Positions 1-34,102 of a stretch of DNA of 34,102 nt are shown here, one piece after another. Under the pieces are notes generated by a model, which worked only from the letters and a program-made list of their open reading frames with translations, was not told the DNA's origin and did not search any database. The stretch is from a virus (Duplodnaviria > Heunggongvirae > Uroviricota > Caudoviricetes), in the IMG/VR virus record IMGVR_UViG_2778261316_000008. The stretch is one strand, 5' to 3'. The translations under genes and the position numbers were made by a program. How positions within the stretch are numbered: position 1 is the stretch's first letter; every line of letters starts with the position of its first letter.

Positions 1-330
1 TCAGTAACCAAACAACGCCCATTTTAGTAGTGCATCTGCATCATTCTTCAAACTTCCAAGGTCTTTTCCTGGTGAAATTGTTGCCGCTACACCAAGCGCA
101 TTAAGTCGAAGCTGTGCCTGATGGAATCGACTCTCTTGCTGTAGGCCCAGAATTTCATTTTTATTCGCGACAGCATAACGCTGAATGGCTGACTTCGATA
201 CGCTGTAACCTTTATCGGCTAACCAGAGCGAGAGCCATTCATAACTGGTGAAGTTTGTGCGCGATAATTCGCTATGAAGCTCGGCACGAACATCCTCTGG
301 CAGTTTATCAATATTGCTTGGTCTGGCCAT
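1..330 (-). CDS. DUF3486-like protein (short paralogue of the gp27-like ORF at 12611-13156)
   Basis: ATG at 330 preceded by AGGAGG; N-terminal ~55 aa (MARxSxIxKLPEDVR...GYxxSKSAIxRY) clearly alignable with the 181-aa ORF at 12611; stop codon at bases 1-3. Confidence 0.6.
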   Translation of the reverse strand: MARPSNIDKLPEDVRAELHSELSRTNFTSYEWLSLWLADKGYSVSKSAIQRYAVANKNEILGLQQESRFHQAQLRLNALGVAATISPGKDLGSLKNDADALLKWALFGY

Positions 331-349
331 CTGTCCTCCTATAAATAGC

Positions 350-739
350 TTAGCTATTTTCCACCTTCTCTGAATCAGAGTCACCATCAAACAGTTTGCC
401 CTGCATCCGATCCAATTCTTCTTTTCTGACCCGCTTCACCACGCTGTAAACCCACTGTAGTGAAACACCGAATTTGCGGGCCAGTTCGTGATGGTTGCGT
501 CCGTCAAACTCCAGGAAGATTTCCCGGTCGCGCTGACTGACCTTCCAGACCATGCCCATCGGAAAATAGACGTTTTGCCCACCCCAGACCTGCATCATGC
601 GGTTCGCGACGGCCTGACCAATCTGGTCGGCAACTGCGGGTTCGATATCAATAATCTCGCGGACGGTCTCAGAGGTATGCTGTGCCAGTTCTACCAACAG
701 TTCCGGCCCTTTACTACGAAACTGATTCAGGTCACTCAT
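350..739 (-). CDS. Mor/C-family transcriptional activator (middle/late gene activator)
   Basis: 129-aa ORF from ATG at 739 (MSDLNQ...); C-terminal region (ELARKFGVSLQWVYSVVKRVR) has the HTH pattern of Mor-family activators; position after GemA-like gene as in Mu. Confidence 0.75.
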   Translation of the reverse strand: MSDLNQFRSKGPELLVELAQHTSETVREIIDIEPAVADQIGQAVANRMMQVWGGQNVYFPMGMVWKVSQRDREIFLEFDGRNHHELARKFGVSLQWVYSVVKRVRKEELDRMQGKLFDGDSDSEKVENS

Positions 740-1164
740 TGCTTCACTCCCGCAGCTCTGCTCTGCCACTTCTTCAGTTTCTCAATCACGCTACTTGCCT
801 GCTCATTGCTGAGCCAGCGTAACGCGCTGATGCCTGTTTCCCGTTTAACCCACAGCGCCAGCGCCTGCTCTGAACTGTCTCGGACGATGCCTGCGGCAGC
901 CATTTCAAGCCATAGCGCACGGATTTTCTTTGACTGCGGATGACTATCCAGCGGTAAGCCGGACCTGGCTTTCCCGGCAGGCTTAATGCGAAAGCCTTTA
1001 TTTTTCATGGATTCCAGCACGCGGTTTAGCTGTGGGGTATCCATCCCTTTGGTTGAGGCTTTGCCGGTCAGCCCCTGTAGCATCTGGCGGTAGGTGTCCT
1101 CATCCATCTGGAGGTCGCTGCGGGCAATATGAATGAGTTGAATAAGACGCTGCTTAGTCATCAT
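736..1164 (-). CDS. GemA-like protein (Mu gp16 family)
   Basis: ATG at 1164 (MMTKQRLIQLIHIARSDL...); motif LIxLIHxA...DDTYR...LxxxTGK resembles Mu GemA/gp16; 4-nt overlap with downstream activator gene. Confidence 0.65.
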   Translation of the reverse strand: MMTKQRLIQLIHIARSDLQMDEDTYRQMLQGLTGKASTKGMDTPQLNRVLESMKNKGFRIKPAGKARSGLPLDSHPQSKKIRALWLEMAAAGIVRDSSEQALALWVKRETGISALRWLSNEQASSVIEKLKKWQSRAAGVKQ

Positions 1165-7587: not shown

Positions 7588-7893
7588 TTAGCGACTACCA
7601 GCCATAACACGCTGGTTAATTTCATTGATACGATCCTGCGCCCGCGCCATTTCGGTACTGTGCGCCATGGCGATTTGTAAGAGCTGGACTCCTGGGGCAA
7701 AACGCCCGTTATCCAGTTTCAGGGCCAGTCCTTCTTCGATAAGGGTATTGAGCGCCCGATTGATATTCGCCGGGGACTCGCCCAGAGCTGACGCCAGCTC
7801 GCCGTTAGAAACACCGTTCAGAGCGTGACCGCGTAAAGCCTTAAGGACACGCAAAATACGGGTACCTGAGCTTGATGTATTTGGTTTACTCAT
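7588..7893 (-). CDS. small winged-HTH DNA-binding protein (IclR-N-terminal-like)
   Basis: 101 aa; RILRVLKAL...VSNGELASALGESPANINRALNTLIEEGL resembles the IclR-type HTH. Confidence 0.5.
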   Translation of the reverse strand: MSKPNTSSSGTRILRVLKALRGHALNGVSNGELASALGESPANINRALNTLIEEGLALKLDNGRFAPGVQLLQIAMAHSTEMARAQDRINEINQRVMAGSR

Positions 7894-8114
7894 GACGCCT
7901 CCTTGAGGATGCCGGGGGTAACTTCTTTGCCTATTGCGACCGAAAGGTCTCGCAAAATCCGATAAGTCAAACGACCGCGTGGAAGTTCGCTTTTGCCTGC
8001 CCAGCGGCTGACAGCCTGGGTGACTGTTCGTGGCTCATAGCCCGCGTTAAGCGCGAACTGGCGCAAGCTACTGCCTCTTTCAACCAGCCGTGCCCGAACT
8101 TGTTGTTTGTTCAT
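7890..8114 (-). CDS. Ner-like DNA-binding protein (putative early/lytic regulator)
   Basis: 74 aa from ATG at 8114 (alternative GTG at 8120); LRQFALNAGYEPRTVTQAVSRW resembles Ner/Nlp family; first gene of the leftward arm, divergent from the repressor. Confidence 0.5.
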   Translation of the reverse strand: MNKQQVRARLVERGSSLRQFALNAGYEPRTVTQAVSRWAGKSELPRGRLTYRILRDLSVAIGKEVTPGILKEAS

Positions 8115-8202
8115 ATGCACCGTGTTCCTGTTGGGTTATGATGTACTCTATTGGGTCTATTGTACGCACCCGAACGGGTATGTCAAATTGAGATATGTTC
8201 AA
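8115..8202. promoter_or_regulatory. divergent promoter/operator region between Ner-like gene and repressor
   Basis: 88-bp gap between divergent start codons; two copies of CT(R)TTGGGT(Y)TA at 8129-8140 and 8149-8160 spaced 20 bp apart. Confidence 0.5.
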
Positions 8203-8613
8203 ATGAGTATAAAAGAGAGATTGCGCGAAGCGATGGATGCTAAGAGTCTGACAATTAAGGCATTGTCAGACTTGTCAAAAATTCCATATCGCTCACTTCA
8301 AAACTATCTGCGTGGAGAGAGAGAACCTAATGCAGAGGCTCTTGTTGCGCTAAGCACCCATTTGAACATATCAATAGATTGGCTACTTACTGGTAAAGGG
8401 GAAGCTGTTGGGGTAGAGAAAGCACAGCCAGCTAATCAGGAGCAGCATTTCAACCAGTCTGATCTGAAGTTATTGGAGCTGCTCAACCAACTGGAGCCAG
8501 AGGTGCGAAAAGAGTTGCTGCGAGGCGCTGAGGAAAAACAGCGAATGATTGATATGGAAAAACAGCTTAAGGAGCTGTCCGCAGCGTTCGAAAGATTAAA
8601 AAATACGGGTTAA
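8203..8613 (+). CDS. XRE-family HTH repressor (putative lysogeny repressor)
   Basis: ATG at 8203 (MSIKERLREAMD...); N-terminal Cro/C1-type HTH, C-terminal coiled coil; divergent from Ner-like gene; AT-rich. Confidence 0.7.
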   Translation: MSIKERLREAMDAKSLTIKALSDLSKIPYRSLQNYLRGEREPNAEALVALSTHLNISIDWLLTGKGEAVGVEKAQPANQEQHFNQSDLKLLELLNQLEPEVRKELLRGAEEKQRMIDMEKQLKELSAAFERLKNTG

Positions 8614-9229: not shown

Positions 9230-10000
9230 TCAAAAATTACAAATTACCAGCTCTTTCTTCGGGCTGGGTTTGCCTGTTACCTTAAGGTTGTAGCTGATAT
9301 CAACCGACTGCATGTTCAGACCGTTGAATACCTGCCGCATTTCCGGGATATCGTTCACTGATATAATCATCTTCCCTTTGATCCTTCGCGCTAAATCTGC
9401 CATGTGATCATAGTTTTCCAGCCCGAACTCCACACCATAGCCTTCCGTTCCCCAGTACGGTGGGTCACAGTAGAACAGCGTATGCGGGCGATCATATCGC
9501 TCTATGCACTGGTGCCAGTCCAGATGCTCTATCAGCGTTCTCGACAGGCGCAGGTGTGCCATCGACAGTTCTTCCTCAATACGCAGCAAATTGAAGCGCG
9601 GCGCACTGGTTGTAGAGGTACCGAATGTGTGATCGGCGACCTTGCCGCCAAATGCCTGTTTCTGCAGGTAGTAGAACCGGGCCGCCCGCTGAATGTCGGT
9701 GAGCGTTTCTTCCGGCGTATCCTGCAACCATTTGTAAATCTGACGGCTGACCAGCGCCCATTTGAACTGGCGAATAAATTCTTCCAGATGATGCTTGACC
9801 ACCCGATAGAGGTTCACCAGTTCCCCGTTGATATCGTTAATGACTTCGGTCTTGCTGGGAGTCTTTAGGAAATAGAGCGCAGCTGCCCCGCAGAACGGCT
9901 CCACATAGCAGGTATGGGCCGGAAACAATGGTAAAATATGCTTCGCCAGACGACGTTTACCGCCAATCCATGGGACGATGGGTAAAGATTGTTCTTTCAT
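9230..10000 (-). CDS. Dam-like N6-adenine DNA methyltransferase (D12 class)
   Basis: DPPY motif (LFYCDPPYWG), SAM-binding-like EPFCGAAALYF; ATG at 10000 (alternative TTG at 10024). Confidence 0.8.
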   Translation of the reverse strand: MKEQSLPIVPWIGGKRRLAKHILPLFPAHTCYVEPFCGAAALYFLKTPSKTEVINDINGELVNLYRVVKHHLEEFIRQFKWALVSRQIYKWLQDTPEETLTDIQRAARFYYLQKQAFGGKVADHTFGTSTTSAPRFNLLRIEEELSMAHLRLSRTLIEHLDWHQCIERYDRPHTLFYCDPPYWGTEGYGVEFGLENYDHMADLARRIKGKMIISVNDIPEMRQVFNGLNMQSVDISYNLKVTGKPSPKKELVICNF

Positions 10001-10247
10001 TATCCGTAAGCCTTTTGCAATCAATGAAAATATGGCAGGCTAGTCTGGTCTCGCGAGACTGACTGAACCCTGGTCGGCTCACAGTGCATACCTGTGGGTT
10101 GATGACCAGCCTGGTGTTACCGCACCGGGCTGGTCGTTCTTTCAAAGCCATCATGCGGTTCACGTCTGCATCCTCACTATTAACGCTGTTTAAAATCCCT
10201 TTCCCCGACCATTTGTGATGCTGTCTCCACTACACAAGGAGACGCTC

Positions 10248-12307: not shown

Positions 12308-12611
12308 TATCGCCCGCGTGCGCCGGGAATCCCTGCGCTGGAGTCTGCTGGTTGCTCTGAACAAAACCCGCCCGTATACCGCCAGCGAGACGCTGCTGCT
12401 GGATGTATCCCGCGCCATCTACCCGGACACCACGCCGCTGGAGCTGCGCCGTGAGCTGGATTATCTGGCCGACCGCAAGATGGTAGATCTGGAGAAAAAA
12501 CCCTCCGGCGACTGGTTTGCCGACCTGACCCGCCTCGGCGTCGACCTGGTGGAATACACCGTGGAATGCGGCCCCGGCATCGCCCGCCCGGAAAAGTACT
12601 GGAGTGAATAA
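12300..12611 (+). CDS. hypothetical protein (Mu gp26-like position)
   Basis: ATG at 12300 with CAGGAGG RBS; stop overlaps start of next gene (TAATG). Confidence 0.5.
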   Translation: MVDIARVRRESLRWSLLVALNKTRPYTASETLLLDVSRAIYPDTTPLELRRELDYLADRKMVDLEKKPSGDWFADLTRLGVDLVEYTVECGPGIARPEKYWSE

Positions 12612-13156
12612 TGGCCAGACGCAGCACGATAGAAAAGCTGCCGGAAGATGTGCGTCGCTGGCTTGAGCGGGCGCTGACTGAATCCGGCTTCAGCGGGTAT
12701 AACGAGCTGGAGTCCCTGCTGCGTGAGCAGGGTTACGTCATCAGCAAATCGGCTATCCATCGCTATGGACAGAAGATTGAGCGCCGCTATGGCGCTATCC
12801 GTGCGGCTACCGAAGCGGCCCGCATGCTGACCGAGGGAGCTGCTGACGATCAGGATGCGCGTTCGGAGGCGGTGATCGCCCTGATTCAGACCGAGCTGTT
12901 CGAGAGTATTGTCCAGCTGCAGGAAGCGGAAGAAGGCGAAGTCGACCCCAAAGAGCGCGTGGCGCTGCTGTCGAAGGTGGCGAAGAACGTGGCCACGCTG
13001 TCCCGCGCGTCCGTCAACCTCAAGAAGTTCCAGTCCGAAGTCCGGGCCAGAGCGCAGCAGGCAGCCAGCAACGCCGAGAAAATTGCCCGTAAGGGTGGAC
13101 TGTCAACCGATGCGGTGCAGGCACTGCGACGTGAAATTCTGGGGATTGCCACATGA
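12611..13156 (+). CDS. DUF3486 protein (Mu gp27-like, putative small terminase-like subunit)
   Basis: MARRSTIEKLPEDVRRWL... N-terminal domain; immediately upstream of and overlapping large terminase. Confidence 0.7.
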   Translation: MARRSTIEKLPEDVRRWLERALTESGFSGYNELESLLREQGYVISKSAIHRYGQKIERRYGAIRAATEAARMLTEGAADDQDARSEAVIALIQTELFESIVQLQEAEEGEVDPKERVALLSKVAKNVATLSRASVNLKKFQSEVRARAQQAASNAEKIARKGGLSTDAVQALRREILGIAT

Positions 13157-16976: not shown

Positions 16977-17435
16977 ATGGCTTCCGATAACCTGGTCAAT
17001 ATCACCATTAACGATGAATCCCTGCGCCGGAGCCTCCGTGCGCTGGACCTGGCTGCCACAGACCTGGAACCCGCGATGCGTAAAATCGCCGGAACCCTGC
17101 TGGCGGAAACGCAGTTTAACTTTCTCGATGAGGGGCGTCCGGGGTGGACTCCCTCGCTGGCAGCGGAAAAGCGCGACGGGCAAACACTGCAGGATACCGG
17201 GCGTCTGATGGGGTCAGTATCAACCGACCATGACGACCGGCAGGCAGCAGTTGGCACTAATGTCGTTTATGGGCCAATTCACCAGTTCGGTGGTAAAACG
17301 GGGCGTAATGAGTCCGTCGAACTTCCGGCCCGTCCGTTCCTGCCGCTGACAGGGGACGGTGAGCTGCAGCCTGAAGTGGTTGTCCCCATCCTCGATACGA
17401 TTGTCCGCCATCTTGAAGCAGCGGCCCGTCGCTGA
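16977..17435 (+). CDS. virion morphogenesis protein (Mu G-like)
   Basis: ATG at 16977 with GAGAGGA RBS; 152 aa; position after F-like gene. Confidence 0.6.
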   Translation: MASDNLVNITINDESLRRSLRALDLAATDLEPAMRKIAGTLLAETQFNFLDEGRPGWTPSLAAEKRDGQTLQDTGRLMGSVSTDHDDRQAAVGTNVVYGPIHQFGGKTGRNESVELPARPFLPLTGDGELQPEVVVPILDTIVRHLEAAARR

Positions 17436-17479: not shown

Positions 17480-17515
17480 GGGGCTGTATTACCTTTATAA
17501 AGGCTTTACAGCCCC
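17480..17515. promoter_or_regulatory. nested dyad element in the G-I intergenic gap
   Basis: Perfect 12-bp palindrome CCTTTATAAAGG (17492-17503) flanked by 9-bp inverted repeat GGGGCTGTA / TACAGCCCC. Confidence 0.4.
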
Positions 17516-17649
17516 CGCTTTGCACCACTATTCGCCCGCAGCGTGACATTCCCCGTACTGATACCCCCGATTTTTTCTAAAGCAGATTAAAAGCGCTGCT
17601 GATGCTTTTTCCACAGACTGTCCCCGACAACGTAACGCGGGACAGCAAA

Positions 17650-18747
17650 ATGCCAGCCATTCACATTTTTAAAGCCGGTACTCATACCGATATGCACGGC
17701 ACGAAACTGCCGTTCACGCAAAGCGATCTTGCCGCCTGCGTGAAAGCCTATGACCCGTCCGTCCATGAAGCACCACTCGTTATTGGCCACCCCAAAACGG
17801 AAGACCCGGCGTGGGGCTGGGTGAAATCCCTGTCGCTCAAAGGCGGCGATCTGCTGGCAGAGCCTGACCAGCTCGACCCGCAGTTTGCCGAACTGGTGGG
17901 CAACGGACGCTTCAAGAAGGTCTCCGCCTCATTCTATCTCCCTGACTCACCGAACAACCCGAAGCCCGGCACGCTTTACCTGCGTCATGTCGGCTTTCTG
18001 GGGGCGCAGCCACCTTCCATTAAGGGGCTGAAGCAGGTCTCGTTTGGTGAGAAAGAAGAAGGCGTCGTGGAGTTTGCCGACTGGAGTGATATCACCAATG
18101 CCTCTTTATGGGGCCGTCTGCGCGATTTTCTGATCGCCCAGTTCGGGCTGGACGAGACCGACAAGGTGCTTCCTTCATGGCAGGTTGACTCCCTGCGCGA
18201 AGAGGCTTACCGCGACACCGGGAAGTCTGAACCGGACTTCAGTGAACACAATCCCAACCCTCAACAAGAGAACAGCACCATGACTGAAGAAGAAATCAAA
18301 GCGCTTCAGGCGGAAAACACGCGTCTGAAAGCGGAAGCCACCCAGCGGGCGGAACAGGAAGCAAAGACCAGGCAGGACAAGCTGCACGCGGACAACGTCT
18401 CCTTTGCCGAGAAGCTGGTCGGCGCGGGTCGCCTGACCCCGGCAGCAAAACCGGTTGTTGTTGCCATTCTTGACGCGGTCTCTGCAGGTGACAAGCCGGT
18501 TGAGTTTGCCGAAGGCGATACCCGCACCCCGCTGGCCACGGCGTTTAAGACGCTGCTGGACAGCACTGATCCGGTACTGAATTTCAGTGAGCATGCGACC
18601 AAAGACCGCGTGAGCACGGATATCAAAACGACGTCAGCGGAGTTTGCTGAAGCCGACCCGGAACGTCTGGCGCTGCATCAGAAAGCGCTGGAACTGTCGA
18701 AAAAAGAAGGCATCAGCTACGACGCTGCTGTCTCCCGCTGCCTGTAA
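17650..18747 (+). CDS. prohead protease/scaffold protein (Mu I-like)
   Basis: MPAIHIFKAGTHTD... N-terminus, C-terminal coiled-coil scaffold-like region; alternative upstream in-frame ATG at 17602. Confidence 0.7.
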   Translation: MPAIHIFKAGTHTDMHGTKLPFTQSDLAACVKAYDPSVHEAPLVIGHPKTEDPAWGWVKSLSLKGGDLLAEPDQLDPQFAELVGNGRFKKVSASFYLPDSPNNPKPGTLYLRHVGFLGAQPPSIKGLKQVSFGEKEEGVVEFADWSDITNASLWGRLRDFLIAQFGLDETDKVLPSWQVDSLREEAYRDTGKSEPDFSEHNPNPQQENSTMTEEEIKALQAENTRLKAEATQRAEQEAKTRQDKLHADNVSFAEKLVGAGRLTPAAKPVVVAILDAVSAGDKPVEFAEGDTRTPLATAFKTLLDSTDPVLNFSEHATKDRVSTDIKTTSAEFAEADPERLALHQKALELSKKEGISYDAAVSRCL

Positions 18748-23466: not shown

Positions 23467-23473
23467 TATCACA

Positions 23474-23496
23474 GGGGCTTCGGCCCCTTTCTTCTT
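23474..23496 (+). terminator. rho-independent terminator
   Basis: GGGGC-TTCG-GCCCC stem-loop followed by TTTCTTCTT. Confidence 0.6.
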
Positions 23497-23501
23497 AATC
23501 C

Positions 23502-23539
23502 CCTTTAATATCCGTCACGTCCACCTCCAGACATACTGC
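23502..23539 (+). promoter_or_regulatory. candidate activator-dependent late promoter element (copy 1)
   Basis: CCTTTAATATCCG-N18-ATACTGC; same bipartite block with identical spacing recurs at 29318-29355. Confidence 0.45.
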
Positions 23540-23564
23540 TCTGAACTTACACAGGAGCACGATC

Positions 23565-23879
23565 ATGTCACAGACCCAATCCGATACTTTTAAGCTGTCT
23601 TACCCCTTCACCACCGCAGCAGGCACCAGAGTTGAGCAGGTTGAACTGAAACGCCTGACGGTCAAAGACCTGAAGCAGGTGCGCAAAATCAGTAAAGACC
23701 CGGCTGACTGGGACGAACCGCTCATTGCCCGTAGCACCGGTATTCTCCCCGAAGACCTCGATAACATGGATCTTACCGATTACATGGAGCTGCAGAAACG
23801 ATTTCAGCAAGTCACTGGGCTGGGCAAGAGCGACGAAAACGCTGATGCAGGCGCAGGGGCTGCTGGCGAGGTGGTTTAG
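23565..23879 (+). CDS. tail assembly chaperone
   Basis: 104 aa, upstream of tape measure; acidic C-terminus; overlapping +1-frame ORF follows. Confidence 0.6.
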   Translation: MSQTQSDTFKLSYPFTTAAGTRVEQVELKRLTVKDLKQVRKISKDPADWDEPLIARSTGILPEDLDNMDLTDYMELQKRFQQVTGLGKSDENADAGAGAAGEVV

Positions 23880-29305: not shown

Positions 29306-29317
29306 CCTTCTTAAACG

Positions 29318-29355
29318 CCTTTAATATCGGCGTTCCCGCACAGGGGCAATACTGC
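29318..29355 (+). promoter_or_regulatory. candidate activator-dependent late promoter element (copy 2)
   Basis: CCTTTAATATCGG-N18-ATACTGC, matching the block at 23502-23539. Confidence 0.45.
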
Positions 29356-29359
29356 CCCC

Positions 29360-29707
29360 ATGAAAACAACTTCCGTATTCTGGCAACCGGCCCTGCAGGC
29401 CCCTGGCGAAATCGTCCGGGGGCTGGATGATATCTGGCAGGCCATTCAAATCATCCTGCGAACTCCTCGCGGCAGCGACCCGCATCGCCCGGAGTTCGGC
29501 AGCAACCTGCATCTTTATATCGACTGGCCCATCGACCGGGCTATCCCACATGTGGTGCGCGAGTCCGTTGATGCCATCCGGCGCTGGGAGCCTCGCTGCC
29601 AGCTTATGTCGGTTAAACCCGCCGTCGACGGTGAACATCTTACGCTCCGGGTGAGCTGGAAAGGCTCTGACGGACAGCCCCGGACTCAGGAGCTTTTATG
29701 GTGCTGA
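29360..29707 (+). CDS. baseplate wedge protein (GPW/gp25-like)
   Basis: 115 aa; IWQAIQIILRTPRGSDPHRPEFGSNLHLYI pattern typical of GPW/gp25 family. Confidence 0.75.
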   Translation: MKTTSVFWQPALQAPGEIVRGLDDIWQAIQIILRTPRGSDPHRPEFGSNLHLYIDWPIDRAIPHVVRESVDAIRRWEPRCQLMSVKPAVDGEHLTLRVSWKGSDGQPRTQELLWC

Positions 29708-32208: not shown

Positions 32209-32380
32209 TCCGAAAATGTTAACTGAGGTTATTCCTGGATTTCATGACACCACTGATGCAATTGAATTGCCGGATGACAACTGGTTTTTCACAACAACTG
32301 AAATACCTGAAGGGAAAATACTCGCCGCAAATGAACGCGGCGAGCCCGTTCTGATTGATATTACTGTCCCGGAGGAGTAG
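32195..32380 (+). CDS. small ORF downstream of S (possible short or truncated tail fibre assembly protein)
   Basis: 61 aa from ATG 32195 with GGAGGG RBS, 14-nt overlap with S; no clear Tfa C-terminal domain. Confidence 0.35.
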   Translation: MRLFNPKMLTEVIPGFHDTTDAIELPDDNWFFTTTEIPEGKILAANERGEPVLIDITVPEE

Positions 32381-32957
32381 GCCAAATAATAACCGGTGCG
32401 CTGGCGGTGTCAACGCCCTCCAGCGCATCCAGATAATCAAGCCAGGCATTATATTGTTCTTTTTCTGCGTCCTTCAGGCGACCCATTGCTGCTTTACCAG
32501 GCCATTGCTTACCATTCATAAAGTCATTGGCCTGGCTAATCAGCGCCTGTAGTTTTGTTGCCGCCACAGAAATATCATATGCGCGCTGAGCTTCGGGATC
32601 GGCAACCCATTTATTACCATCCCATTTATCAAACTTTGTAGTTGGTGCTTCAAAAGTAAAGCCTTCACGCAACGGTCCAATATATTCGATAGTCACCGGC
32701 TTCCCGTTACTGGTGGTGTATGCTGTTTCTCCACGATGGTCTTCTTTAAGCACCCACTCAGATCCAGAAAAAATAAATACCTTCCCTCCTGCTTCGGCCC
32801 CTGGTTCTATCGCCGTAGAGCATCCGGGCATACTGACACCGATGTTAATAAACTCGTCAGACCATCCCATATATTCAGAAGTCACAGCGTCGTAGTAATA
32901 ACAGCGGATTTCACCCGGTTCTGTTGCCAGTCCGTTTACATCGAAAACAGGTTTCAT
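32361..32957 (-). CDS. tail fibre assembly protein (Tfa/U'-like)
   Basis: 198 aa; EDHRGETAY...GPLREGFT...KWDGNKWVADPEA matches conserved Tfa region. Confidence 0.75.
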   Translation of the reverse strand: MKPVFDVNGLATEPGEIRCYYYDAVTSEYMGWSDEFINIGVSMPGCSTAIEPGAEAGGKVFIFSGSEWVLKEDHRGETAYTTSNGKPVTIEYIGPLREGFTFEAPTTKFDKWDGNKWVADPEAQRAYDISVAATKLQALISQANDFMNGKQWPGKAAMGRLKDAEKEQYNAWLDYLDALEGVDTASAPVIIWPTPPGQ

Positions 32958-33472
32958 TATTTAGCCCTTACAAGAAAGTTGAATGCAATATTTCTTGGGC
33001 GGCTTTCCGTGGATGTTCTGGCAACCCTCGATAAATCAAAATTGAATGTAGAAGTTGATACGGTTCCGCCTGGTGCCGGGGGGGCCAGATTGCCCTGAAC
33101 AACGCTGCGAGAAAATACCCCCAACGCATCTGTATTTACCCCTGTATAAAGATCAACGAGATAACCAGTAACATTCTGAATGGCGTCTCCCTGCGGTGAA
33201 AGCAGGGTTCGCCCATTATCTATCCCACGTCCATCATCCCAGACACGCAGAAACTCTCCTCGCAGATCTGGCAATTTCAGGCCCGGCCAAACAAGGGCCA
33301 ATTTTGGGTAAGTGGTAGGGGAAAATGTTGAGTCGTTAAACTTAAGGAACACCATGTCGGCCCATTCCGGCATCACGGTATTTGGCATGGCAGAAGACGG
33401 CCAAAAAAATGGAACTCCTATCGGTGGTGCACCTGCTCCTAAACCAAGGTTTTTGGAAAAGCAGTTACACAT
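32957..33472 (-). CDS. alternative tail fibre C-terminal segment (S'v)
   Basis: Begins ...FSKNLGLG at the right gix-like site (same KNLGLG as in S); C-terminus ...TESRPRNIAFNFLVRAK matches P2 H / Mu S-type fibre tips. Confidence 0.7.
   Translation of the reverse strand: MCNCFSKNLGLGAGAPPIGVPFFWPSSAMPNTVMPEWADMVFLKFNDSTFSPTTYPKLALVWPGLKLPDLRGEFLRVWDDGRGIDNGRTLLSPQGDAIQNVTGYLVDLYTGVNTDALGVFSRSVVQGNLAPPAPGGTVSTSTFNFDLSRVARTSTESRPRNIAFNFLVRAK
33439..33456. repeat. hix/gix-like recombination site (right inverted repeat)
   Basis: CTAAACCAAGGTTTTTGG; core AAACCAAGGTTTTTG is identical to the core of hixL as I recall it (TTCTTGAAAACCAAGGTTTTTGATAA). Confidence 0.7.
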
Positions 33473-33520: not shown

Positions 33521-34102
33521 ATGGCCGTTATTGGTTATATCCGCGTATCAACAATCGACCAGAACAGCGATTTGCAGCGTAATGCACTCACAAGCGCAAA
33601 CTGTGACCGCATTTTTGAAGACCGTATGAGTGGAAAAGTTGCCAGTCGCCCTGGTCTTAAAGGCGCTTTAAAGTGCATTAATAGCGGAGACACCCTGGTA
33701 GTGTGGAAACTGGACAGGCTGGGACGTAGCGTTAAGAACCTGATTGCACTCATATCAGAGTTACATGAACGTGGTGCCCACTTCCGCTCTTTAACAGACA
33801 GTATTGATACCAGCACTGCCATGGGGCGCTTCTTTTTCCATGTAATGTCGGCATTGGCGGAGATGGAGCGCGAGCTAATTGTCGAACGGACACTGGCCGG
33901 GCTGGCAGCAGCCAGAGCACAGGGACGCGTAGGTGGAAGGCCCAACGCATTAAAAACCCATGAGCGAGAGCAGATTGGGCGGCTATTGACGAAGGGGCAC
34001 ACCCGCCAGCAGCTGGCAATTATCTACGGTGTAGGGTTATCGACGCTTTACCGATACTTTCCGGTGGATGGTCATAGGAAGGATAACGCAGCAGGAATGT
34101 AA
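33521..34102 (+). CDS. gin: Gin/Hin/Pin-family serine DNA invertase
   Basis: 193 aa; GYIRVSTIDQN with catalytic Ser, VWKLDRLGRS, C-terminal HTH (GRPNALKTHEREQIGRLL...LSTLYRY); GGAGGA RBS; stop is the last codon of the window. Confidence 0.9.
   Translation: MAVIGYIRVSTIDQNSDLQRNALTSANCDRIFEDRMSGKVASRPGLKGALKCINSGDTLVVWKLDRLGRSVKNLIALISELHERGAHFRSLTDSIDTSTAMGRFFFHVMSALAEMERELIVERTLAGLAAARAQGRVGGRPNALKTHEREQIGRLLTKGHTRQQLAIIYGVGLSTLYRYFPVDGHRKDNAAGM

Follow-up and report, generated by a model that had tools for sequence, protein, structure and literature searches.

Two copies of a block in the tail gene region

The 34,102-nucleotide stretch of DNA analyzed here (IMG/VR record IMGVR_UViG_2778261316_000008, below called the window) is a BcepMu-type (Bcepmuvirus) transposable, Mu-like prophage, and the element under study is a block of sequence that recurs in two intergenic gaps among its tail genes. 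The first copy is found in a 99-bp gap between a 93-codon open reading frame (ORF), which follows the tube gene, and the gene for a tail assembly chaperone resembling gpE of phage P2 (23565-23879, plus strand; Pfam Phage_TAC_7, 1.8e-22). The second copy is found in a 54-bp gap between the gpV-like spike gene and the gene for a baseplate wedge protein of the P2 gpW/gp25 type (29360-29707, plus strand; Pfam GPW_gp25). At the chaperone gene, CCTTTAATATCCG (23502-23514) is followed by an 18-bp gap (23515-23532) and ATACTGC (23533-23539), with the ATG at 23565, while at the gpW gene CCTTTAATATCGG (29318-29330), with one mismatch to the first copy, is followed by an 18-bp gap and ATACTGC (29349-29355). 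A first-pass annotation, made from the sequence alone, had given these coordinates for both copies, and all of them were correct when the sequence was read again. Elsewhere in the window the exact 13-mer does not occur. The similarity extends beyond what had been described, however: CTTCTTAA-N3-CCTTTAATATCSG-N18-ATACTGC occurs with zero mismatches at 23491-23539 and 29307-29355, and was absent from 100 dinucleotide-preserving shuffles (0 expected by chance).

The anatomy of the block is a palindrome, TTAAA-N4-TTTAA, followed after exactly 23 bp by a -10-like hexamer, NAnACT, and then G. The 13-mer and 7-mer of the first-pass annotation are both repeated. Of these, the 13-mer is only the right half-site, with its flank, of an 18-bp palindrome, T-n-TTAAA-N4-TTTAA-n-A, and ATACTGC comprises the last five bases of the hexamer and two discriminator bases. 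In the chaperone copy, below called P_E, the putative activator-site block CTTCTTAATCCCCTTTAATATCCG (23491-23514, plus strand) contains the palindrome TTAAT-CCCC-TTTAA (23495-23508) and is conserved both in IMG/VR relatives and in relatives from bacterial genomes. It is followed by a spacer of fixed length and free sequence (23515-23531, plus strand), the hexamer CATACT (23532-23537, plus strand), a predicted start at A 23544 and a Shine-Dalgarno (SD) sequence, AGGAG, at 23553-23557. In the gpW copy, P_W, the corresponding block CTTCTTAAACGCCTTTAATATCGG (29307-29330, plus strand) contains a perfect palindrome, TTAAA-CGCC-TTTAA (29311-29324), and is conserved from Enterobacterales to BcepMu. 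Its hexamer, AATACT (29348-29353), is surrounded by the hairpin GGGGCA-ATAC-TGCCCC (29343-29358, plus strand; -12 kcal/mol, z -3.1). The +1 was here taken as the seventh base after the hexamer (A in both P_E and P_W), and start positions are thus predicted from the hexamer only.

Two further sites ahead of the lysis and head genes

The two blocks ahead of late units are both real, but the number of such blocks is four. The search with the exact motif that had been suggested would have missed the lysis and head copies. When the window was searched for the 13-mer with up to three mismatches, the additional matches were chance-like only, and the lysis and head copies came to light only with the block recast as palindrome plus hexamer. 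A scan of the window with TTAAA-N4-TTTAA-N24-ATACT (at most three mismatches) gave five matches against 0.32 expected, a number reached in none of 100 shuffles, and the palindrome alone (at most one mismatch) likewise gave five matches against 0.32 expected. All five composite matches are on the plus strand, and four of them are found one in each of the four sizeable gaps between genes of the late region, ahead of late gene blocks.

The first of the added sites, P_lys (10180-10229, plus strand), consists of the palindrome TTAAC-GCTG-TTTAA (10180-10193) and the hexamer GATGCT (10217-10222), which ends 26 bp before the ATG (10248) of a gene identified as a holin by Pfam; the predicted +1 is A 10229. 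The second, P_head (17577-17627, plus strand), consists of the palindrome CTAAA-GCAG-ATTAA (17577-17590) and the hexamer CAGACT (17614-17619), ending 31 bp before the protease/scaffold ATG at 17650, with the predicted +1 at 17626/17627.

All four hexamers (GATGCT, CAGACT, CATACT and AATACT, respectively) carry A as their second and T as their sixth base, and the distance from each of them back to its dyad centre is 30.5 bp, which puts the centre at -42.5 with the predicted +1 seven nucleotides after the hexamer. No -35 hexamer was found, the bases 17 bp upstream (TATCCG, TATCGG, AATCCC and AAGCGC) matching TTGACA at no more than two of six positions. Canonical sigma-70 promoter matches in the late region as a whole numbered 6 against 7.8 expected, and were thus not above chance.

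Several other candidates were discarded. The fifth composite match (8199-8241, three mismatches) lies inside the 5' end of a Cro/CI-type repressor gene and, although conserved in Klebsiella phage KP12, is probably due to chance. AAAGCNGATTAAAAG, considered as a separate element, is the head-class version of the palindrome (CTAAA-GCAG-ATTAA). A perfect dyad-like sequence, TTAAAGGCGCTTTAA, near 33658 is situated inside the invertase gene without a hexamer and was judged a coding coincidence. A scan of IMG/VR with TTTAATATC-N20-ATACTG was uninformative; among the matches listed, many were in apparently unrelated contigs.

Conservation and fixed spacing in relatives

By searching IMG/VR alone, 267 relatives were found. 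Over the stretches queried, Klebsiella phage KP12 is 99.8% and E. coli phage PhiKM 85% identical to the window, and Burkholderia phage BcepMu is about 70% identical in the sheath and tube genes; among genomes, the capsid gene has its best match in Mixta mediterraneensis. Two sets of relatives were compared, namely 80 close IMG/VR relatives around gpW and 40 bacterial-genome loci around the capsid gene, the latter with one genome per species.

The spacing was analyzed in 32 sequences (30 of the 40 bacterial-genome loci, the window and PhiKM) by counting the dyad together with NANACTG, at most two mismatches, over gaps of 15 to 31 bp. On the plus strand, 77 matches were found at a gap of 23 bp, against 0-3 at every other gap, while the minus strand of the same 32 sequences had zero matches at 23 bp. 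The composite recurs at three to four equivalent gene junctions, always with the gene orientation kept, in Mixta, Pantoea, Photorhabdus, Xenorhabdus, Pectobacterium, Brenneria, Symbiopectobacterium, the Plautia symbiont and Gallibacterium. In the last of these the capsid identity is down to 35%, yet the promoter architecture is present. The same composite scan found nothing in BcepMu or in three Burkholderia genome loci (L003 and L108-L110, respectively), and weaker counterparts ahead of their holin, protease and gpW genes were found by eye, with the same spacing. In BcepMu, a P_head-type site is also situated upstream of gp32 and of the holin gene.

In the 80 IMG/VR relatives the spacers have many different sequences but identical length; their information content is low, while the dyad and the hexamer are conserved. 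A at position 2 and T at position 6 of the hexamer are nearly invariant, although both were search criteria, so that this invariance is partly built in. Other positions are conserved without having been selected on, namely C at hexamer position 5 (69 of 85), G directly following it (70 of 85) and a purine seven bases past its end (70 of 85). Conserved in the same way are an A two bases past the dyad and its counterpart, a T two bases ahead of the dyad, by which the palindrome is extended to 18 bp. Judged from the sequences compared, this is the pattern of a promoter, a DNA signal whose two parts are read at a set distance from each other, and is unlike that of an RNA structure or a neutral repeat.

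Probable terminators ahead of the sites

Directly upstream of the P_E palindrome is the stem-loop AGGGGC-TTCG-GCCCCT with a T-rich tail (23473-23498, plus strand), the tail running into the activator site. The hairpin GGGGC-TTCG-GCCCC itself is found at 23474-23487 (six pairs, 23473-23488, when the flanking A-T is counted) and is followed by the T-rich TTCTTCTT. At -11.8 kcal/mol (z = -3.2), it was among the best terminator-like sites in a scan of the late region. Relatives keep a hairpin and T tract at this place with at least seven different stem sequences, e.g. GGGAGCC/GGCTCCC, GGGGCC/GGCCCC and AGGAGGGA/TCCCTCCT, and GGCCCGC/GCGGGCC in BcepMu, which argues for function. The listing in the scan, the stability and the structure kept in relatives all agree with the first-pass identification of an intrinsic terminator, one that would close the head/sheath/tube unit.

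Terminator-like hairpins precede three of the four sites (10104-10140, 17419-17434 and 23473-23488). The one at 10104-10140 is very stable (17 pairs, -31 kcal/mol, z -5.8), is followed by GTTCTTTC and is situated between P_lys and a Dam-like methylase gene of divergent orientation (9230-10024, minus strand). It probably acts as a terminator, protecting the lysis genes against rightward transcription that leaves the repressor region.

The candidate activator and the promoter interpretation

The early genes of the prophage are read leftward from the minus strand and comprise an IclR-like helix-turn-helix (HTH) gene, transposase A and B, GemA and, as the last, a gene of the Mor/C family (350-769, minus strand; Pfam Mor, 1.3e-42). 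The late genes are read rightward from about 10.2 kb, with holin and lysis genes followed by terminase, portal, protease and capsid, and a P2-like tail. The Mor/C-family gene, the presumed activator, is the sole member of its family in the prophage: when all ORFs of the window were searched by phmmer, the queries being Mu Mor, Mu C and BcepMu gp01, this was the single match, and the encoded protein is at about equal distance from Mu Mor and Mu C. As a separate observation, the C-terminus of the protein (350-390) reads ...RMQGKLFDGDSDSEKVENS, in which QGKLF resembles the motif QPDLF, the C-terminal clamp-binding motif of MuC that is needed for MuC-dependent late transcription (PMC12867686). BcepMu gp01 has QRDLF in place of QGKLF.

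The single Mor gene, the position of the palindrome, the hexamer without a -35 element and the invariant spacing together support activator-dependent promoters of the Mor/C type before the late units, as the first-pass annotation had proposed. We regard it as highly probable that both copies of the block are sigma-70 promoters that need the Mor/C-family activator of the phage, and that they are two of four late promoters. The best explanation of P_lys, P_head, P_E and P_W is that they add new members, recognised through a different sequence, to the class of Mu C/Mor promoters. The anatomy of the sites, their spacing, their pattern of conservation and the presence of the activator gene are plain from the sequence and the comparison with relatives; from these we infer the identity of the binding protein, the start sites and the dependence on the activator. 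No account of late promoters in BcepMu-like phages was found in the literature searched.

According to the proposed mechanism, a dimer or tetramer of the Mor-like protein, whose gene closes the early operon, would occupy the palindrome in the way known for Mu C and Mor. By recruiting or isomerising RNA polymerase, it would then turn on promoters that have no activity of their own. P_lys (10180-10229) would serve the holin and lysis genes, P_head (17577-17627) the protease/scaffold and capsid genes, P_E (23491-23544) the chaperone, tape measure, gpU, gpD and gpV genes, and P_W (29307-29360) the gpW, gpJ, gpI and fibre genes. As there is no second Mor/C-family member here, the late operons must be direct targets of the Mor-like protein, and the cascade would have two steps, early to late.

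Some points weigh against this interpretation. Start-site, footprint or reporter data for this phage group were looked for in the literature and not found. The sequences compared are related, so that the counts overstate the number of independent observations. P_head, with three mismatches to the composite, is borderline on the window alone and draws its support from position and conservation. The BcepMu site before the chaperone gene has one good half-site only and was not counted as support. Lastly, the conserved RNA hairpins described below, which have part of the hexamer in their 5' arm, could mean that the true start is upstream.

Comparison with known activator-dependent late promoters

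The closest parallel is found in phage Mu, where the late promoters have a -10 but no -35 element and where C occupies an imperfect dyad of 16 bp, its centre at -43.5, with protection from -30 to -55 (PMC2582627); the consensus given for MuC is TTAT-N5-6-ATAA (PMC12867686). With the -10 and +1 assignments of Mu reconstructed from its genome and the published -43.5 centre, Plys reads terminator-TCCT-GTCACC-ATAA-N24-TAGACT-GCCATC-A and Pmom TTAT-GCCCCA-ATAA-N24-TAAGAT. Common to both phages are sigma-70 promoters (predicted ones here) with a weak -10 and no -35, four in number and heading lysis, head and tail units, and an A/T-rich dyad of 14-16 bp (4-N6-4) with a G/C-rich centre, about 43 bp upstream of the start. 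The unusual ACTG ending of the hexamer is also shared (TAGACTG in Mu Plys and CAAACTG in PI; CATACTG, CAGACTG and AATACTG here), and at Mu Plys the T tract of a terminator merges into the activator site, as it does at P_E.

There are also differences. The half-sites here are TTAA(A)/(T)TTAA rather than TTAT/ATAA, so that the sites belong to another member of the family and not to MuC. The starts of dyad and hexamer are 37 bp apart here and 38 bp in Mu, and the dyad centre is 30.5 bp from the hexamer against 31.5 bp (Plys and Pmom). The tail promoters stand before homologues of gpE and gpW instead of before P and mom, the activator is distant from MuC (phmmer E of about 1e-10 to 1e-12) and there is no separate middle stage. 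A different half-site sequence is expected for a distant family member. The Mor-dependent middle promoter of Mu, Pm, has the same activator family, encoded like here by the last early gene next to gemA, and a dyad overlapping the -35 region (PMC4287176, PMC2582627). Pm drives a middle operon that encodes C, however, whereas no second family member was found among the ORFs here.

The tail genes themselves invite comparison with phages P2 and 186, as operons of homologous tail genes are there, too, headed by activator-dependent promoters without a -35 element. These late promoters depend on Ogr/B and head operons of the tail genes FI, FII, E, T, U, D, V, W, J, I and H; the Ogr site, TGT-N12-ACA, has its centre near -55, and a zinc-finger protein serves as activator. 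Neither an Ogr-type protein nor such a site is found here, and the operon boundaries differ (in P2, P_F is before FI and P_V before V).

A possible leaderless gpW start

At P_W, the predicted +1 is the A of the gpW ATG itself (29360), this being the seventh base after the hexamer. The distance from hexamer to ATG is 6 (rarely 7) nucleotides in 47 distinct sequences, including those of the Plautia symbiont and BcepMu, and the N-terminus of gpW aligns from ATG 29360 with those of PhiKM and BcepMu. No SD sequence is found at a usable distance from this ATG, the only G-rich run being 14-17 nucleotides upstream and within the hairpin. This suggests, with less certainty than for the promoter itself, that P_W transcripts would begin on the gpW AUG and be leaderless. 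The cI gene of phage lambda, when transcribed from PRM, has such a leaderless mRNA with the AUG at +1, and gpW is like it in having its AUG at the predicted +1 and no SD sequence. It differs from cI in being a structural baseplate gene inside a late operon that would also be reached by read-through from P_E.

The protease gene of the Burkholderia phages is arranged in the same way as gpW (GATGAT-GGGCGCC-ATG). In Burkholderia-type relatives (BcepMu, L003 18849-18864, and loci L108, L110 and L105), the protease start as annotated, ATGATGGGCGCCATG, shares bases with GATGAT, the hexamer predicted as -10. Translation more likely begins, leaderless, at a conserved in-frame ATG 6-7 nucleotides past this hexamer.

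Hairpins overlapping the predicted promoters

The stretch from hexamer to start codon folds better than its shuffles at four of four sites (z -2.9 to -4.1, with -4.1 for P_lys), and hairpins joining the hexamer to the SD or start codon are predicted in most lineages. The 5' arms are situated at or upstream of the predicted +1 (GTCTCC at 10223-10228 in P_lys, CTGTCCC at 17618-17624 in P_head, GACAT and TGCTC in P_E, GGGGCA in P_W), and the 3' arms cover the SD sequence or the start codon. Thus GTCTCC is complementary to the SD region GGAGAC of the holin gene (10238-10243), and CTGTCCC to GGGACAG (17639-17645) just ahead of the protease/scaffold ATG. Other lineages keep this arrangement with different arm sequences, e.g. 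ACTGCCTCTATTA/TAATAGAGGCAGT at the Photorhabdus head site and ACTCCCTTTAAAC/GTTTAAAGGGAGT in Gallibacterium. When bases -11 to +1 of 26 lysis, head and chaperone sites were paired with their own SD region, the mean was -11.4 kcal/mol, against -7.0 with SD regions across classes (permutation p < 1/5000) and -5.3 (standard deviation 0.4) with shuffled 5' arms. Three of the six consensus pairs of the P_W hairpin have compensatory changes, while the fold-back pairing at P_E is weak in most Enterobacterales sequences.

A comparable arrangement of hairpins is found at Mu Plys (z -3.1) and PI (z -4.8), but not at Pmom. In Mu (L124, 10448-10486), the Plys discriminator CTGCCATCA is complementary to the lys start-codon region TGATGGCGG, and at PI (18022-18052) CTGCTCA/TGAGCAG is found just ahead of the ribosome-binding site of gene I. 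No mention of these complementarities at Plys and PI was found in the accessible literature.

The main alternative to the promoter interpretation builds on these structures, and holds that the conserved pieces act in RNA. Transcription would then start upstream, with the right half-site TAATAT/TAAAAT as the -10, and the hairpins would be structures of the 5' untranslated region or sites for a translational regulator or nuclease. Both the hairpins and the specificity of the complementarity for the own SD region count in its favor, as does the nature of the changes, which preserve pairing by being G-U wobbles or compensatory (e.g. GTTTCC/GGAAAC in locus L101, and the three compensatory pairs at P_W). 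Nevertheless, the right half-site was rejected as an alternative -10, as it is TAAAAG or TAACAG in the head class, without the T at -7 that a -10 element requires. In the downstream hexamer A2 and T6, both of them search criteria, are present in nearly every case, and there is no other conserved -10 candidate. An RNA stem would not need the exact distance of 23 bp to the palindrome that is kept in every class and lineage, nor does pairing explain the conservation of the hexamer, which is in the loop at P_W, in the stem at P_lys and weakly paired at P_E. Moreover, three of the four sites are just downstream of terminator-like hairpins, a search of Rfam gave no family match, and the hairpins fit the promoter model as well if they are confined to read-through RNA. 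We consider it unlikely that the conserved pieces act in RNA.

With the sites taken as promoters, the hairpin could form only in RNA that comes from upstream, because its 5' arm is outside the transcript begun at the predicted +1. For P_lys, P_head and, more weakly, P_E, this suggests that the pairing of -11 to +1 would silence translation of read-through RNA, while RNA started at the promoter would be translated efficiently. The silenced RNA would come from host genes at the insertion site, from the repressor operon or from the preceding late unit. A similar device is known from IS10, where, as Davis, Simons and Kleckner reportedly described in 1985, the ribosome-binding site is paired with a stretch that precedes the transcription start of the element itself, so that outside transcripts are left untranslated. 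The arms at P_lys, P_head, Mu Plys and PI are arranged as in this fold-back inhibition of IS10/IS50. The effect is experimental for IS10, however, and deduced here, and the 5' arm here overlaps the -10 and discriminator of an activator-dependent promoter. It may tentatively be proposed, at somewhat less than an even chance, that the late operons of Mu-type phages are insulated at translation in the manner of IS10, such that RNA entering from upstream would be silent and only RNA from the activator promoter translated, and that this would be a general feature hitherto unrecognised. On this reading, the AUG would be at +1 behind a hairpin at gpW and, in Burkholderia phages, at the protease gene too, and the generality is suggested by the complementarity at Mu Plys and PI.

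Other explanations of the conserved sites

Instead of the Mor-like protein, the palindrome might be bound by another factor, e.g. as the operator of a late-gene repressor, by the IclR-like or Cro/CI-like HTH protein of the early region, or by a host factor. The link between site and Mor is sequence evidence alone, other HTH proteins are encoded in the window (7588-7893 and 7890-8120, both on the minus strand, and 8107-8613 on the plus strand), and the half-sites TTAAA/TTTAA differ from the TTAT/ATAA of MuC. On the other hand, a site at -50 to -35 of promoters without a -35 element has the geometry of an activator, near-identical to that of the Mu C/Mor sites (PMC2582627), while repressor operators normally overlap -35, -10 or +1. 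The site is also found ahead of late operons only and is absent from the early control region. Furthermore, Mor is the only activator family known for Mu-type late genes, and is carried by every relative examined. A factor other than the Mor-like protein thus appears improbable.

That the blocks are a non-functional repeat, either a relic of duplication or sequence kept by recombination at module junctions, is very improbable: the two tail-region copies are closer to each other (24 of 24 specified bases) than to the lysis and head copies, and the copies do occur at module junctions of a mosaic phage with P2-like tail genes, but conservation is limited to the dyad and the hexamer, the 17-bp spacer is free in sequence and constant in length, and the architecture is found at four junctions, out to Gallibacterium and (lysis, head and W, by eye) BcepMu.

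Further features of the prophage

About 65 bp upstream of P_head is a long hairpin (17480-17515; -23.9 kcal/mol, z -3.5), GGGGCTGTA-TTACCTTTATAAAGGCTT-TACAGCCCC, the core of which, TTTATAAAGGCTTTAC, is conserved in BcepMu (L003 18733-18757) and PhiKM. Its place is the intergenic region between G and I, close to the centre of the genome; phage Mu has its strong gyrase site there. Directly downstream of the Mor-family gene is an ORF of 109 codons (4-330, minus strand) that matches only the N-terminal third of Pfam Phage_Mu_Gp27 (3.6e-14), while a full gp27-like small terminase gene is found at 12611-13156. The ORF may be a truncated gp27-like duplicate, or a small HTH protein at the prophage end. 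Lastly, AAACCAAGGTTTTTGGAAAAG at 33440-33465 resembles a Gin/Hin-type crossover site. In this region (with 32361-33472 on the minus strand and 33521-34102 on the plus strand) it adjoins a serine invertase gene (Resolvase and HTH_7) and oppositely oriented tail-fibre/assembly ORFs, which points to an invertible host-range segment, as in Mu.

Implications for BcepMu-like phages

BcepMu-like phages are common prophages of Enterobacterales, Burkholderia and Pasteurellaceae, and the sites described here would give them a concrete late regulon of four promoters with an 18-bp palindromic site and a fixed spacing of 23 bp. Such a regulon could be used for annotation of operons, correction of start codons (e.g. 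of the Burkholderia protease genes) and design of induction reporters. It would also offer a second natural DNA specificity for the Mor/C activator family, for which new structures and a link to the sliding clamp have recently been reported (PMC12867686; bioRxiv 10.1101/2025.05.02.651988). Control by Mor/C is the expected kind for a Mu-like phage; what goes beyond expectation is a gpW start that may be leaderless and the overlap of hairpins with the promoters. If true, the leaderless start and the fold-back pairing would show how a randomly inserting prophage silences its lethal late genes under read-through transcription.

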